Shown: positions 2,880 through 37,146 of the stretch, piece by piece
Layout: each line of letters opens with the position of its first letter
Numbering within the stretch: the stretch's first letter is position 1
DNA from: an uncultured Flavobacteriales bacterium
GTDB taxonomy: Bacteria; Bacteroidota; Bacteroidia; Flavobacteriales; JBLHRE01
Assembly (NCBI GenBank): GCA_937139155.1
Contig: CAKZPI010000037.1
Span: forward strand, 68,195 to 132,194
Length of the DNA stretch: 64,000 bases
Direction of reading: 5' to 3'
Position numbers and translations under genes: made by a program
The notes under the pieces: generated by a model
What the model was told of the DNA's origin: nothing
Database searches by the model: none
The model's input: the letters and a program-made list of their open reading frames with translations, nothing else

Positions 2880-3078
2880 GGGAGGGAAGCTTTCCCCTCA
2901 AAGGTAATAGAAAATGAATTATCCCGTAAATAATACCTTGACCCTATATGTCATGAATGAAATCTAGGCGAGGAGGCTTAACCCTAAAGGGTTCCATGCA
3001 AGAATGTTATGATTTTATGCAAGTTGCTGATATATAGTTAAAACCACGGTTGAAAAAACTGAATAGCTCATGAATTAA

Positions 3079-4053
3079 CTAGGGATCAAGGTCCAATATT
3101 AAGTTCCCAATTTTTTCTCCAGACTCCATATGTTGATAGGCTTTTTTAATTTCTTGAAGGGAGTAAGTTCTTTCAATGAGTGGATGTATTTTTCCTTCCT
3201 GAAGGTAGATAGCAGCGGTTTCAATACTTTCTTGAATGTTTTTAGGGATGGGGAATTTCATGATTTTCCCTTTTCTCAGCCGGGTTAGCAATGGGAGAAA
3301 TAAACTTTCCTTGTAGGGGCCCAGTTCTGAGCTCATATAAATGCCTCTTGGCTTTAGAATTTGCTTTGCAATTTTGAAATTCAGCTTTCCAACGGAATCC
3401 AAAAACACATCGTAGTCTTTTGATAAGGATTTAAAGTCGAGGTTTTCATAATTGAATACATGGTCGGCTCCCAAGGACTTAATCTGATCCAAATGCTTTT
3501 TTCCAGAACTAGCCGAAACCATGGAGCCATTGGCTTTGAAGATTTGAATGGCCGCTGAACCGATGGCGCCGGTTCCACCATTAATAAAGATTTTCTTAGG
3601 ATTTCGGGCGGCTTTAAAATAGGTGTAGGCATAATGGAAGCCTTCTAAGGATGCAGCTGCTTTTTCAAAATCAATGGTTTCTGGAATTTTAACCATGGCA
3701 ACGTTGGAGTCCACTTTTAAAAGTTCCGCTTGGGAACCCAGCCCTTCATCTCGAAAGCCCATTACTCGGTCGCCGATTTCAAACCCCTTAAAATCCTTCC
3801 CCTTCTCGATGATTTCCCCGGAAAAATCAGTGCCTAAAACCTTGATTTTCGGATGGGGCATTCCAGTGAAAAACCTAAACACGAATGGCTTGCCTCTTAG
3901 AACCCCTTGGTCGGTACGGTTAATGGTTGTGGCCTGCACCCTTACCAAAGCTTGATGGTTCTTTAAAGGGCTTAATGGAATGGCCTCTATACGAATGGTT
4001 TCTGGGGGGCCGTATTTATCACGAAGGGCTGCTTTGTATTTTTTCGGAATCAT
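3079..4053 (-). CDS. MDR-family NAD(P)-dependent oxidoreductase (quinone oxidoreductase-like)
   Basis: LGTDFSGEI, GDRV, INGGTGAIGSAAIQ, G-K-x-G-N C-terminal pattern. Confidence 0.9.
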   Translation of the reverse strand: MIPKKYKAALRDKYGPPETIRIEAIPLSPLKNHQALVRVQATTINRTDQGVLRGKPFVFRFFTGMPHPKIKVLGTDFSGEIIEKGKDFKGFEIGDRVMGFRDEGLGSQAELLKVDSNVAMVKIPETIDFEKAAASLEGFHYAYTYFKAARNPKKIFINGGTGAIGSAAIQIFKANGSMVSASSGKKHLDQIKSLGADHVFNYENLDFKSLSKDYDVFLDSVGKLNFKIAKQILKPRGIYMSSELGPYKESLFLPLLTRLRKGKIMKFPIPKNIQESIETAAIYLQEGKIHPLIERTYSLQEIKKAYQHMESGEKIGNLILDLDP

Positions 4054-30644: not shown

Positions 30645-31393
30645 TTGAGAAGAAATGACTCTAAGAAAGGCAACTATTACTATGGAGCACGTTACTACGA
30701 CCTGAAGATTTCTGTGAATCCGTTGGCGCATAAATACCCCAGCCTTTCGCCTTATGTATTTACAGGTTATAACCCCATTATGTTGGTGGATCCGGATGGA
30801 ATGAGGATAGCTCCTAGAATGGATGATACCGATAAACAGTTAATTAATCTATTTACAAACGGGGACCAGGGAATGGCGGAAATGTTATTTTTCAGTCCGA
30901 AGGGTATCCAAAGAAAATAATAGTCAAAAAGTTAACCACTATGAGGCCAAGACGAAGTTTTGGACTCAACGTGGATTTAGTAGGCATGCTGAGAAACTAG
31001 GAATTGCCTTTTCAGGATCAGAGCTTGATGAAGCTTATGGTTTGTATAAGTTTGTAAGAAAAAAAAGTCACAGAAATAGCCATGCTCGAAACTGGAACGT
31101 CTGAACCTGGCACTGCGGTAGGGGTTGGGCCTCCTCGTACAAGAGGAAAAGCCTTTAAAAATGTCCTAGATTTACTTTCGGAAGGTCCAATAAATGAGCA
31201 AGATGAGGATGAGATTTTCTCAGAAAACAGTTTTGGTGGGGCAGAAATTAACAATGACGCCCTGTTTTTTAAAGATCGAAAAATCTCATTGAATAAGATT
31301 GATGGCATTATTTTAATAAGGGTTGATCCGACAATGAATTCTGAGGCAAAAACAGATATGATGAGACAAACCATAGATGATTGGGAAAAATAA
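30645..31393 (+). pseudogene. RHS cassette A: decayed RHS-associated core plus C-terminal toxin domain in three frames
   Basis: GNYYYGARYYD.KISV[WLSV lost]NPLAHKYPSLSPY...DPDG; stop 30920; frame +1 open 30844-~31066; A8 run 31059-31066 leads into the frame of ORF 31082-31393. Confidence 0.75.
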
Positions 31394-32927: not shown

Positions 32928-32993
32928 CTTTTGGTTTTATTTGTCATCCGTCCTATCACCTAAGACTATGAGCTAAATCACTAAGTTTAGCCT

Positions 32994-33135
32994 GTGAATA
33001 CAAACCTAACGTATCCAGCCCAAATTTGCGGCGAAAACCTCTACAAATACGAAGCCGACTCAGGCGACTACAACTCCCCTTACCGCTTCAACGGAAAAGA
33101 TCTCGGCCCGGAAACTGGCAACTATTACTACGGAG
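32994..33135 (+). pseudogene. RHS cassette B: truncated N-terminal/core stub
   Basis: GTG start; MNTNLT...NLYKYEADSGDYNSPYRFNGKDLGPETGNYYYG, homology to 36241 ends at 33135. Confidence 0.8.
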
Positions 33136-33513
33136 TAAGCTCAAGGCCCAAAGCTACCCTTGGAAGCGGTGCAGGTCCTTCCCTTAAAGTCCTACGTGGA
33201 AAAGAACCGTCCACAGCTTTTGGAGCTGACCAGCGCAAAAAAAGACAGTCATATGCTCTTTCCGAAAGGTGAGAAGACCCGTTTTAGTTCGGTAACAGGA
33301 AGTATTTTAAAGAGGTTGAAAATCCCGCCCCATACGGGGTTGAGAAATCATACGGACATGGATAATCTGTATCAGATACGCATCAACAGGATAGCCCTTT
33401 GGCTGAATCAGTACAACCTGAGAGAAGTGCAGTACAAGGCTGGTTACAGGAGCTTGCAGAGCTTAGAGACTTTTGGCAGGGAGGCCCTGGAAGAGCTCAA
33501 AGACTGTAGATAA
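33136..33513 (+). pseudogene. C-terminal remnant of a tyrosine recombinase (XerD-like integrase)
   Basis: QIR.....WL.QYNLREVQYKAGYRSLQSLETF resembles the Bacteroidota integrase tail QIRASVI..WL..YNLRQVQY.AGH.YISSTE.Y; His and catalytic Tyr positions read Y and F; N-terminus absent. Confidence 0.65.
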
Positions 33514-33585
33514 ATACCACCCTTAGGGTGATGTGCTTAATTATTTGTATTTTTGTACCATATTGGTACACGTTAAATTAAAATT

Positions 33586-33837
33586 ATGTTGGTAATAAGC
33601 AGTCGGGAGTTCCGACAGAATCAGAAAGAATACTTTGAGCGGGTGGATAAGGGTGAACATATCATTGTCCAGCGAGGAAAGGACAAGGCATATGCCTTGA
33701 CACCTGTGAGTGCAGATGATATGTACTTCAATGCCGAGATGGTAAAACGGATCAAGCAGAGCCTGCAGGAGATAGAACAAGGGGATTACAAGGAGATAAG
33801 CAGCTCGAAAGAAATAAGTGATCTGTTAGGCTTATGA
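33586..33837 (+). CDS. yefM: Type II TA antitoxin, Phd/YefM family
   Basis: ISSREFRQNQKEYFERVD.GE.IIVQRG; overlaps the toxin start (ATGA). Confidence 0.88.
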   Translation: MLVISSREFRQNQKEYFERVDKGEHIIVQRGKDKAYALTPVSADDMYFNAEMVKRIKQSLQEIEQGDYKEISSSKEISDLLGL

Positions 33838-34112
33838 GCTATACCTTGCGTTTTTCCAAAACCTCTTTGGAAGATATTGAAAGGCACAAGAAATCAGGGG
33901 ACAGGGCAACGATAAAGAAAATCGAAAAACTGCTCAACGAACTAAAAGAGCACCCAACAACAGGGATTGGTCAACCAGAAAAGCTGAAGCATGACTTGGC
34001 AGGCTTGTACTCCCGGAGAATCAACAAAAAGCATCGTTTGGTCTACCCGATCGATGAAAGGATAGTTACCGTTCATATTGCGAGCGCATGGGCGCATTAC
34101 GGGGATAAATAG
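33834..34112 (+). CDS. yoeB: Type II TA toxin, Txe/YoeB family RNase
   Basis: P.TGIGQPEKLKHDLAGLYSRRINKKHRLVY...HY. Confidence 0.92.
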   Translation: MSYTLRFSKTSLEDIERHKKSGDRATIKKIEKLLNELKEHPTTGIGQPEKLKHDLAGLYSRRINKKHRLVYPIDERIVTVHIASAWAHYGDK

Positions 34113-34276
34113 CAAGCCCTGTCTACCCTTTGTCCACCCCCAGCCCTTCTATTGTTTTTCTGATCATGCTTTTTGTGGCCAACCCACCTGCAGCACATCC
34201 TGACCGATAGCCTCAGGAAGAGCTTCTCCACCAGCTAAATAACAAAAAGACATGCCAGAAAAACAATCTCAAGCTA

Positions 34277-34305
34277 CATTAACATAACAAGTAGTTATAG
34301 GGACC
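34277..34305 (-). other. dif-like (XerC|XerD-type) recombination site, 7-bp spacer
   Basis: Minus strand GGTCCCTATAA-CTACTTG-TTATGTTAATG versus E. coli dif GGTGCGCATAA-N6-TTATGTTAAAT. Confidence 0.55.
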
Positions 34306-34384
34306 GCCCACAAGAGCCCATTGCTAAATGAAACCAGCGTACACAAGTTGAGGCGGAGGTGAGATCCCGGGCCACGTTCTGGGA

Positions 34385-34411
34385 CTGCCCTATAACCAAA
34401 TTATGTTAAGT
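34385..34411 (+). other. dif-like recombination site, 5-bp spacer, inverted relative to 34277-34305
   Basis: CTGCCCTATAA-CCAAA-TTATGTTAAGT. Confidence 0.55.
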
Positions 34412-34618
34412 AGCCGCTTTCCCTGCGCTTTTGCCAAAGGGGTCTTCCCCCCCCCTTCAACCCCCGGATGTTCACCTGCTAAAGCGGATAACTCCATTGC
34501 TATAAGGCAAACCGGTTTATCCGCATTATCAGGCGAACGCTTTTCAAAGTCCAGCTAATCTTATTTTTTTTCAATTGAAAGAAAAAAATGAAAGGTCGAA
34601 TGCTTATTTTGCAGCTTC

Positions 34619-35488
34619 ATGCAAACATCCCGCATCCGATACAGACTTACTAAAACCCAGCCCCCTTTCTCGCGCGAGGAAAAGGTGAGTAGGGGAAGTC
34701 TGAAAAAGGGAGTGGAGACAGGTAACTACTACTACGGAGCTCGTTATTACGACCCGAAGATTTCTGTGTGGCTTTCTGTTGATCCTCTGGCGCATAAGTA
34801 CCCGAATCTAAGTCCTTATGTGTTTACGGGGAATAACCCCATTATGCTGGTGGATCCGGATGGAAGGGATATTTGGGAGTATGATAAGAATGGTGATTTG
34901 ATTTGCCATGAGGAAAACACTGAAATTGACCAAATATTTGTGGTTGACGGTGAAGGAAATGAATTAGCCGGGATATCTATGGAGTATGGAACAATCACAA
35001 ATACCAGTGAAGAGTCCTTCGGTGATGGTACCAAACTTAACAGCCTTAGGGTAAAACCAGAGGCTTCCTCAGAAGTATTTGAGTTTTTTGCAGATAATAC
35101 AAATGTTGAGTGGGGTGAACTAAAATCTGGAGAGCATGACTCAAGAATTTTCACTAATTGTATGGAGGGTGATATTCATGCAGGTCGTATGTTTAATGAG
35201 GCGAATCTTAGCGGGGAGTATATTACAGAATTTAATCATTCCCACCCTAATGGGTACGATCTGCCATCTGGCGCAGGTCCCGAACCAAGTCGAATGGCAA
35301 AGGCGAGAGGGTCATTGATAATATCTCCAGCGGGCGAGTGGGGTGATATTCAAATGGTAAAAGATATGAACAGCATTTATGACCAAATGAATTTACCACA
35401 TCCGAGATACAATATTTATGTTCCAAGAAAAAGCAGTGGTTTCGGAGGCAATTACAATTCATTTAATGAAAACACAAGAGTAGACTAG
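34619..35488 (+). CDS. RHS cassette C: RHS-associated core (from 34715) plus JAB/MPN-like toxin domain (Tox-JAB-1-like)
   Basis: ETGNYYYGARYYDP...DPDG; FEFFADNTNVEW; HSHP-x6-S (35237 onward) ...GEWGD. Confidence 0.8.
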   Translation: MQTSRIRYRLTKTQPPFSREEKVSRGSLKKGVETGNYYYGARYYDPKISVWLSVDPLAHKYPNLSPYVFTGNNPIMLVDPDGRDIWEYDKNGDLICHEENTEIDQIFVVDGEGNELAGISMEYGTITNTSEESFGDGTKLNSLRVKPEASSEVFEFFADNTNVEWGELKSGEHDSRIFTNCMEGDIHAGRMFNEANLSGEYITEFNHSHPNGYDLPSGAGPEPSRMAKARGSLIISPAGEWGDIQMVKDMNSIYDQMNLPHPRYNIYVPRKSSGFGGNYNSFNENTRVD

Positions 35489-36140: not shown

Positions 36141-36240
36141 TCATATTGGTAAAGGGAAGAAGCAGTGTCCCAAATTTAAGTCCATAAATTCCCATTAAAG
36201 TTTTTTCGTATCGATTTTCTCAAATCATTAAGTTTAACCA

Positions 36241-37146
36241 GTGAATCCAAGCCTAACAAATCAAACTCAAGTTAAAGACAAAAACCTCTACGAATACAAC
36301 GCCGGCTCAGAAGACTACAACTCCCCTTACCGCTTCAATGGTAAAGAGTTAGACCCTGAGACAGGCAACTACTATTATGGAGCTAGGTACTACGACCCGA
36401 AGATAAGTGTGTGGTTATCTGTGGACCCGCTGGCGCATAAGTACCCTTCTTTAAGTCCTTATGTGTTTACTGGGAATAACCCAATTATGTTGGTGGACCC
36501 GGATGGGAGGGATATATGGGAATTGGATTTAAACGGAAATGTTTTAAATCATACCGTTGATGAGTCCCAGGATACCTTTATAGTTCTTGACAATGATGGT
36601 AATTATGTAAGTGGTATTTCTTTTGAAGGTGGGACTATTGAAGCGTATAGAAATCAGACCACATCTTTTAATGATTTTCATAGTGGAGGTAAAGAAGTTG
36701 TAGGTGATATTGACATTAATAAAATCCGGGGGGATTTTGAGTCAGAAGCCTTGTTTACTTTCATGGCTGATAATACAAATGTTGAGTGGAATGAAATAAA
36801 GACTGGGGAGTCTGGAGGCTCAGGTCTTGGGTTTTTAACAACTGGTCATAGAGAAGGCCAAAATCCGGGGCTGAACGACTTGTTAAGAGGCCAATTAATA
36901 AATGACTATACGATAAGAGAAATAAATCACAACCATCCTAAAGGTTCATCTTATCCTTCTGGTTCCTTTAATGCTGAAATTAACGGTCAAATGCTTGGTG
37001 CAGGAGAATGGGGAGATGTGAAAACCGCAGCGAATATTCAAGATTGGTACAATCGAGCATACCCTAATAGGTCAGGCATCATCGAATTCAATGTATATAC
37101 TACAAAGAATGGTTTTAAAGCATATGATAGAAATACAAGAAGGTAG
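36241..37146 (+). CDS. RHS cassette D: short N-terminus, RHS core and JAB/MPN-like toxin domain
   Basis: GTG start; DYNSPYRFNGKELDPETGNYYYGARYY...DPDG; FMADNTNVEW; HNHP-x6-S (36928 onward) ...GEWGD. Confidence 0.82.
   Translation: MNPSLTNQTQVKDKNLYEYNAGSEDYNSPYRFNGKELDPETGNYYYGARYYDPKISVWLSVDPLAHKYPSLSPYVFTGNNPIMLVDPDGRDIWELDLNGNVLNHTVDESQDTFIVLDNDGNYVSGISFEGGTIEAYRNQTTSFNDFHSGGKEVVGDIDINKIRGDFESEALFTFMADNTNVEWNEIKTGESGGSGLGFLTTGHREGQNPGLNDLLRGQLINDYTIREINHNHPKGSSYPSGSFNAEINGQMLGAGEWGDVKTAANIQDWYNRAYPNRSGIIEFNVYTTKNGFKAYDRNTRR

Follow-up and report, generated by a model that had tools for sequence, protein, structure and literature searches.

An inverted pair of dif-like sites in a Flavobacteriales Rhs toxin array: probable relic of a folded attachment unit of tandem Xer-like recombinase modules

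To our knowledge, only a few systems use folded single strands as recombination sites, i.e., integron attC sites, CTXphi and related Xer-exploiting phages, and some HUH elements. CTXphi of Vibrio cholerae is a filamentous single-stranded DNA phage without a recombinase of its own that integrates at dif; its attP(+) site has an overlap region with unpaired bases and is recombined by one strand exchange (PMC3442271). Integron attC sites are imperfect palindromes of 60–140 bp, in which two box pairs with unequal spacing leave extrahelical bases around a non-conserved interior; they are recombined as a folded single strand by an Xer-related recombinase, with replicative resolution. In Acinetobacter, inverted pdif sites of the XerC/XerD type, 28 bp long with 6-bp spacers, bracket kilobase modules with accessory cargo including toxin-antitoxin genes. 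In Bacteroidales, rAID-1 places a XerD-like recombinase gene beside orphan toxin/immunity arrays with integron-like intergenic motifs (bioRxiv 10.1101/471110). Finally, XerT of the Helicobacter element TnPZ, recombinase-in-trio and Tn554-type elements encode tyrosine recombinases of Xer size, some of them in tandem (PMC8138268); no folded inverted dif-like site has been described for these elements.

Here, we analyzed a 64,000-nt window (i.e., the whole stretch of DNA under study) from an uncultured Flavobacteriales bacterium, in which ahpC and a thioredoxin gene are followed by an Rhs array, made up of orphan C-terminal toxin cassettes and immunity genes. The original prediction had noted two imperfect dif-like sites with spacers of 7 and 5 bp facing each other within this array, and both the sequence and shuffled controls bear this out. 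On the + strand, the half-B site (34279-34302) reads TTAACATAA CAAGTAG TTATAGGG, i.e., CCCTATAA-CTACTTG-TTATGTTAA in reverse complement, while 34388-34409 within half-A reads CCCTATAA CCAAA TTATGTTAA (Table 1). The pattern CCCTATAA-N4-8-TTATGTTAA occurred twice in the window compared to zero times in 100 dinucleotide shuffles, and the genome scan that had been proposed returned these two matches only in the whole 3.0-Mb genome (0 for a reversed control pattern). The predicted facing arrangement holds as well, with XerD-like arms outward and XerC-like arms inward (D-C...C-D); the distance had been given as 79 bp, which counts a slightly longer arm, and the inner 8-mer arms are 85 bp apart (34303-34387). 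The inverted repeat extends beyond the arms, with GCTAC(A)T on the left pairing with GTAGC on the right. The pair itself is a 131-bp imperfect palindrome.

Table 1 Features of the segment holding the inverted dif-like pair, and of its two flanks (positions in the window).
Feature	Position	Strand	Remarks
Stub B, 5' part of Rhs orphan cassette	32953-33136	+	Breaks off after ..GNYYYG
RecB-type Xer-like tyrosine recombinase remnant	33160-33513	+	C-terminal ~40%; homology from 33139
yefM/phd-type antitoxin gene, cargo	33586-33837	+	PhdYeFM_antitox 29.5 bits, just under Pfam cutoff; TIGR01552 20.4 bits
yoeB/txe toxin gene, cargo	33834-34112	+	YoeB_toxin 75.6 bits; TIGR02116 85.5 bits, above cutoff
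Unit extension, second inverted repeat (I2)	34151-34267		Arms 34151-34176 and 34242-34267; half-B side
Half-B dif-like site	34279-34302	-	XerD-type arm 34279-34287, 7-nt spacer 34288-34294, XerC-type arm 34295-34302
Interior, apical loop region	34303-34387		85 bp, non-conserved
Half-A dif-like site	34388-34417	+	XerC-type arm 34388-34395, spacer CCAAA 34396-34400, XerD-type arm 34401-34409
Half-A conserved flank GTAGCCGC	34410-34417	+	ATAGCC(G/C)C also in L010, L042, L046, L050
Candidate second-unit relic CTATAAGGCAA	34500-34510	+	C arm + spacer, without D arm; weak evidence
Cassette C, own leader + Rhs-core/JAB-like toxin ORF (34619-35488)	34571-35488	+	Right limit of module

No open reading frame was found within the 85-bp interior, which showed no similarity to the interiors of L010 (see below) or other relatives. 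Around the site, Rfam returned nothing relevant at gathering thresholds or at E-values up to 10; a scan of the repeat detected no promoter-like or terminator-like sites; and neither a dif nor another recognizable target adjoins the unit in the window. Apart from the 48-nt leader of the next toxin cassette, nothing in the 506-bp gap around the pair is duplicated elsewhere in the genome, and a MITE or own-genome repeat family was ruled out because the unit is unique in this genome. No DNA homolog of the locus was found among 60 relatives, as the family of this genome is sparsely sampled, and exact protein matches of YoeB and YefM came only from metagenome contigs of the same organism, in which the repeat has the same sequence and orientation. 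The inverted pair noted originally is real, and its two sites constitute one compact hairpin-forming unit.

The arms of the pair had been likened to those of E. coli dif. Scanning 401 Bacteroidia genomes for CTATAA-N5-7-TTATGTTA yielded matches in 147, in most cases at a single site whose 6-nt spacer is of the TTAATA, TTTATA or TTTACA type, and dif predictions for Flavobacteria in the supplement of Kono et al. 2011 read ..CCTATAA TTTATA TTATGTAAAAT. Judged from these two agreeing sets of sites, the window arms (CTATAA and TTATGTTAA) are the dif arms of the Bacteroidia/Flavobacteriia lineage, and the resemblance to dif is therefore stronger than the E. coli comparison suggested. The best candidate for the genome's own dif is at C42:23582 (CGATAATTAATCTTATGTCA); no candidate was clean, GC skew on the contigs was uninformative, and no other dif-like site with a 5–7 nt spacer was detected in this genome. 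The host encodes XerD (345 bits) and a XerC-like protein (307 bits).

Relatives of the unit were gathered from loci around recombinase homologs, viral contigs, and metagenomes, yielding a family of 28 distinct elements. When one genome for each of 185,579 species was searched with a three-box pattern, the sole other locus was L010, from a Bacteroidales metagenome-assembled genome, which has the same boxes and the same spacers of 7 and 5 nt around an unrelated interior. Across the family, the arms hardly vary, while interiors range from 11 to 89 nt in length. All 19 pairs in the fetched loci are arranged D-C...C-D with the XerD-type arms outside, and none has the reverse order. Spacer lengths combine as 5/7 (the commonest), 6/6, 6/7, or 7/7, and the two spacers differ in all 28 elements: unequal spacers are a conserved trait of the family, contrary to the earlier suggestion that they might mark dead sites. 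In 5/7 elements, the 5-nt spacer belongs to half-A, with the consensus TTATGTTAA followed by ATAGCC(G/C)C, and the 7-nt spacer to half-B, with the consensus TTATGTTAn and a TAGCTT flank. The exact half-A 20-mer of the window, CTATAACCAAATTATGTTAA, was found in 48 metagenome contigs, 39 of which carry an inverted N7 partner with a CnnCwwG spacer (CTACTTG in the window); the N7 spacer of the window is closest to the CAACTTG of a subgroup linked to the recombinase genes RecA and RecB described below.

The unit may lie either way relative to RecB, and intact modules often have two mirror-oriented units, the second 230–900 bp beyond the first. For three such doublets (L047 7835-8973, L204 415-859, and L197 5473-6265), the half-A sides face each other and the spacers differ; at most a tiny gene is present in the 230–900 bp between mirror units. 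The window pair shares the traits of the family, i.e., the D-C...C-D order, CTATAA and TTATGTTAA arms, non-identical spacers, and an extension on the half-B side. It belongs to a widespread and, as it seems, undescribed family of Bacteroidota mobile modules; our literature searches found no published description of such a system in Bacteroidota.

The genomic context of the pair is that of an insertion. Stub B aligns with the start of cassette D (36200-36400; repeat family D4) up to TACTACGGAG, diverges beyond, and abuts the break. The following 1.4 kb (33137-34570) hold the recombinase remnant, yefM-yoeB, and the unit. Next to it, cassette C (Rhs_assc_core 55.2 bits, with a Toxin-JAB1 match) brings its own leader, which together with its N-terminus has a twin at G000:C1:93429, and the foreign segment is therefore delimited to ~33137-34570. 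We conclude that this segment, lodged within the Rhs array, is what decay has left of a mobile module and does not belong to the toxin cassette system. What recurs between the window cassettes is the coding sequence of the Rhs core rather than the unit. A ..ETGNYYYG.. word on both flanks was considered as a target duplication of the insert and ruled out: the right flank is simply the next cassette, with its own leader and its twin on contig C1. The latter locus (L002, G000:C1:93429-95200) consists of a lone short Rhs-core toxin ORF with the cassette C leader and N-terminus (MQTSRI.YRLTKTQPPFSREEKVS..); a candidate immunity gene (257 aa) lies downstream of it, and a PIN-like/antitoxin-like pair upstream on the other strand.

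Two minor features of the array may relate to such modules. The 11-mer CTATAAGGCAA (34500-34510) is also the start of the half-A sites in L197 and L050, and from this identity may be a relic of a second, mirror-oriented unit as in intact modules. Separately, a dif-like word, e.g., GGGAATAA-CCCAA-TTATGTTGG, recurs where the Rhs genes encode ..GNNPIML.. (30765-30786, 34829-34850, and 36472-36493). Its 5-nt spacer CCCAA is the half-A spacer of L063 and one base off the CCAAA of the window, and the word is absent from the L042 Rhs gene. It could be a pseudo-target of such modules, or a codon coincidence.

The ORF at 33160-33513 identifies the recombinase of the module. In a phmmer search against 1.8 billion representatives, it matched residues 181-287 of P0004 (296 aa) with 72% identity, and its identity to ~295-aa proteins reached 72–78%. 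It scored 164 bits against an HMM built from the RecB family alignment, while P0004 scored 28.8 bits against Pfam Phage_integrase. By these matches and their length, the RecB homologs are simple Xer-sized tyrosine recombinases, and since the ORF represents the C-terminal 40% of RecB, the window holds a decayed module. The module has lost RecA along with the first 60% of RecB, and no intact RecA or RecB was found elsewhere in the genome; the unit in this genome is therefore probably inactive. Its arms are nonetheless perfect, which could reflect a recent insertion or continued binding by host proteins.

Strong matches to the RecB family profile were detected in ~45 of the 401 Bacteroidia genomes, often several per genome. 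The RecB gene is preceded by an overlapping Xer-like gene, RecA, in nearly every fetched locus, and both proteins score well below the XerC and XerD equivalog cutoffs. The dif-like unit lies 0.2–4.4 kb downstream of a tandem RecA-RecB in at least 13 loci (L042, twice, L046-L050, L054, and L063, and the metagenome loci L182, L197, L204, L214, and L218). This substantiates the link originally drawn between the pair and the neighboring recombinase remnant, which is a RecB C-terminus. A test for co-location of the motif with Rhs or toxin-antitoxin loci had also been proposed: relatives show co-location with RecA-RecB, and the Rhs cassettes of the window array are not bordered by such sites. The recombinases tied to the unit are a dedicated Xer-like pair, rather than host XerC/XerD only.

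Gene order supports the same association. A primase gene often precedes RecA, and RecB is separated from the unit by ORF6N, YhcG/DUF1016, or Fic genes, with yefM-yoeB in this place in the window; a frequent order is primase-RecA-RecB-ORF6N-YhcG, and L010, in which the unit likewise lies 0.2–4.4 kb downstream of RecB, shows recombinase, ORF6N, YhcG, and unit. In L218, primase-RecA-RecB-ORF6N-YhcG is followed by extension, half-B, and half-A, then by a second, mirror-oriented unit ~320 bp on, and the window order of RecB, cargo, extension, half-B, and half-A matches this locus. Among annotated phages and plasmids, RecB had no useful annotated relative. The L042 module sits inside an Rhs array, as in the window. 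There, a 7,333-bp unit of the contig (L042 and L043, G103:C35 542-15364) is present in 2.02 tandem copies of 99.5% identity, comprising an Rhs C-terminus, a DUF6572 immunity-like gene, two HTH genes, primase, RecA, RecB, and the dif-like unit; the latter was ruled out as the junction of this duplication, the joint of which is in the Rhs core. In L054, the last ~60 nt of RecB (L048 10247-10311) occur twice, 472 bp apart with 95% identity (2989-3053 and 3461-3525), and by this similarity these repeats may be further RecB 3' remnants like that of the window.

In one automatic alignment, 24 of 26 RecA-type proteins displayed the catalytic residues RKHRHY, while 21 of 28 RecB-type proteins lacked Arg-I; in the same alignment, the RecB-type proteins usually also lacked the first histidine and the adjacent RecA-type was canonical. 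In the proteins most closely related to the window remnant (P0003, P0004, and P0006), GY or GF replaces GH, and F replaces the catalytic Y. These substitutions suggest that the RecB partner is probably inactive or structural, and the RecA partner active.

On the half-B side, the unit continues into the second inverted repeat. The extension of the window is 73–74% identical to those of L182, L204, L214, and L218, and can be aligned with those of L042, L046, and L050. RNAalifold on eight sequences, which represent only about five independent lineages, predicted 33 pairs, 16 of them with compensatory changes. A DNA fold of 34140-34420 produced two hairpins (z = -5.6). Since the arms of the dif-like hairpin hardly vary, their pairing is inseparable from a protein-binding constraint on duplex DNA.

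Given the observed anatomy and conservation of the unit, the covariation of its extension, and its co-location with RecA-RecB, we infer how it may fold in vivo, which proteins may bind it, and how strands may be exchanged. Specifically, we consider it fairly probable that 34151-34417 is the attachment or recombination unit of the RecA-RecB modules of Bacteroidota, acting as a folded double hairpin and persisting here as a relic. Single-stranded or extruded DNA of the unit would form a double hairpin; in the dif-like hairpin, the XerD-type arms would pair at the base and the XerC-type arms further in, and the spacers of 7 and 5 nt would form an asymmetric bubble at the position of the dif central region. 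Once folded, the two halves would amount to a single Xer-type site whose overlap region is left unpaired, much like CTXphi attP(+) or the attC sites of integrons. The RecA/RecB pair would bind this site, or possibly host XerC/XerD, as the arms equal the dif arms of the lineage. One strand would be exchanged with a target in duplex form, with replication finishing the reaction; one active and one structural recombinase would be what such a single-strand exchange needs. Recombination between the two dif-like sites is precluded, because their spacers differ in length and sequence and because they are as little as 11–28 bp apart in relatives, interiors of this length leaving no room for the sites to synapse as duplexes. 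Neither the free orientation relative to RecB nor the presence of two mirror units is explained by a simple attP model.

The unit type also occurs without RecA/RecB, both in tailed phages and beside chromosomal dif, which we counted against this explanation. The inverted pair is present in a family of tailed phages that have terminase and portal genes and lack RecA/RecB; their half-A 20-mer is identical to that of the window, and their spacers (CTACATG/CCAAA) are nearly so. Contigs of this family with the pair include L158, L174, L180, L191, and L199, and the left neighbor in L191 is a hybrid histidine kinase. In eight further contigs (L175, L177, L189, L200, L202, L205, L216, and L217), the phage side of half-A is kept, and a different conserved sequence lies left of GTC|CTATAA. 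As read from these alignments, the two alternative joints are the footprint of recombination at this very site. In other Bacteroidia (L066-L070, from G378, G210, G254, G152, and G396), the chromosomal dif (6-nt spacer) is accompanied, at a distance of 0.2–4 kb, either by another dif-like site, whose spacer is 7 nt long, or by a complete inverted pair, an arrangement that looks like small Xer-exploiting elements parked at dif.

Of the described systems, CTXphi attP(+) resembles the unit in having two XerC/XerD-type site pairs inverted a few tens of nt apart (85 bp in the window), arms that copy the dif of the host lineage (here that of Bacteroidia/Flavobacteria, the genome's own dif being a candidate only), and non-identical central regions (CTACTTG vs. 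CCAAA). Unlike CTXphi, however, the unit usually comes with its own tandem Xer-like recombinases, primase, and ORF6N/YhcG genes, has a second conserved hairpin, and is often doubled into two mirror units; in the window, it lies inside an Rhs array and not at dif. The attC site shares the palindromic architecture described above and upstream cargo such as toxin-antitoxin pairs, the likeness in recombination as a folded strand being inferred. The unit differs in having dif arms instead of R/L boxes, recombinases that are not IntI, and one or two copies per module as opposed to one per cassette in long integron arrays. It is thus a member of neither class, given its own recombinase pair, its position away from dif, and the lack of R/L boxes and IntI; by analogy, it most likely works like CTXphi attP(+) or attC. 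With rAID-1, the window and L042 modules share the location of recombinase genes inside orphan arrays, of Rhs type here. The description of rAID-1, for which the recombinase is defined as at least 44% identical to BF9343_RS08045, differs in having one recombinase and repeats between all array genes, compared to two recombinases and a single unit here. Elements of the XerT, recombinase-in-trio, and Tn554 types differ in gene content.

Alternatively, the unit might act as duplex DNA without a folded form, i.e., as a palindromic four-arm platform for RecA/RecB or XerC/XerD, which could serve the excised element in multimer resolution or maintenance (as do cer, psi, and dif) or have a regulatory or anchoring role. 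The near-invariance of the arms is what duplex protein binding would lead one to expect, and the location beside recombinase genes and the free orientation relative to RecB are also compatible with this role. However, a resolution site needs only one dif-like site, sites 11–28 bp apart with spacers that are identical in 0 of 28 elements would be unusable as mutual partners, and the covarying second hairpin and the usual loss of Arg-I in RecB fit a single-strand exchange better, so we regard a purely duplex function as unlikely. The pair could also be the footprint of an integrase-less phage or cassette exploiting Xer (a CTX-type IMEX), with the RecB remnant nearby by chance. This would account for the identical half-A and near-identical spacers in the tailed-phage family that lacks RecA/RecB, and for the inverted pairs beside chromosomal dif in other Bacteroidia. 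Yet the window extension shares 73–74% identity with that of units linked to RecA/RecB, the gene order is that of L218, the N7 spacer is nearest to the RecA/RecB-linked subgroup, and the 30–40 kb region of the window contains no phage genes; a chance association is accordingly a quite improbable reading.

The remaining alternatives fare worse. According to the original prediction, the sites could be the borders of an Xer-mobilized module, as on Acinetobacter plasmids, and drive the acquisition of toxin cassettes. Inverted dif-like arms and an adjoining toxin-antitoxin pair, typical cargo of pdif modules, fit this model. Against it, the sites bound no module: no gene lies between them, relatives preserve the pair as a single unit, the interior of which may be as short as 11 nt (range 11–89 nt), and the spacers are 5 and 7 nt rather than 6. 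The Rhs cassettes are not bounded by such sites either, and no array cassette can be bracketed because the genome holds a single unit. Hence, the unit is not a pdif module, and an involvement of border sites in cassette acquisition appears extremely unlikely. Slightly less far-fetched, and still very improbable, is an integron-type attC of the yefM-yoeB cassette recombined by IntI: the 131-bp imperfect palindrome with two unequally spaced box pairs lies downstream of a toxin-antitoxin cassette, and its right end, GTTAAGT, fits GTTRRRY. By contrast, the left end, CATTAAC, does not fit RYYYAAC, relatives read GTTACTT, GTAAAAT and similar, the boxes are the dif arms of the lineage, no array of such sites exists in the genome, and against TIGR02249 (cutoff 265), RecA reached 107–110 bits and RecB either 43 bits or no match. 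The repeat might finally be an inverton whose interior flips and switches expression of cassette C, or else form a terminator or structured RNA. Invertible promoters abound in Bacteroidota, the repeat is ~210 bp upstream of the cassette C start, and the RNA fold z-scores are -3.4 and -3.9. We nonetheless find this scarcely credible, since the interior is not conserved and shrinks to 11–28 nt in relatives, the unequal spacers prevent the sites from recombining together, and the interior contains no promoter-like or terminator-like site and matches no Rfam family.

For this genome, the practical result of the folded-unit interpretation is one of annotation, with the odd spacers reflecting design and not decay. 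Beyond it, we tentatively propose, as a possibility that we hold to be rather doubtful at present, that a double-hairpin dif-mimic site and a heterodimer of an active and an inactive Xer paralog, acting by single-strand exchange, make up a third folded-DNA recombination system in Bacteroidota, beside integrons and CTX-type phages. If so, primase-RecA-RecB-ORF6N/YhcG modules would seed toxin, toxin-antitoxin, and defense cargo into, e.g., Rhs arrays, and their type of site would be common to integrase-less tailed phages and to cassettes stacked at dif. Should the family be confirmed, it would represent a second instance, independent of the first, in which the chromosome-dimer machinery has given rise to gene mobility, would offer compact recombination parts for Bacteroidota genetics, and could help explain the spread of toxin, toxin-antitoxin, and defense genes in Bacteroidota.
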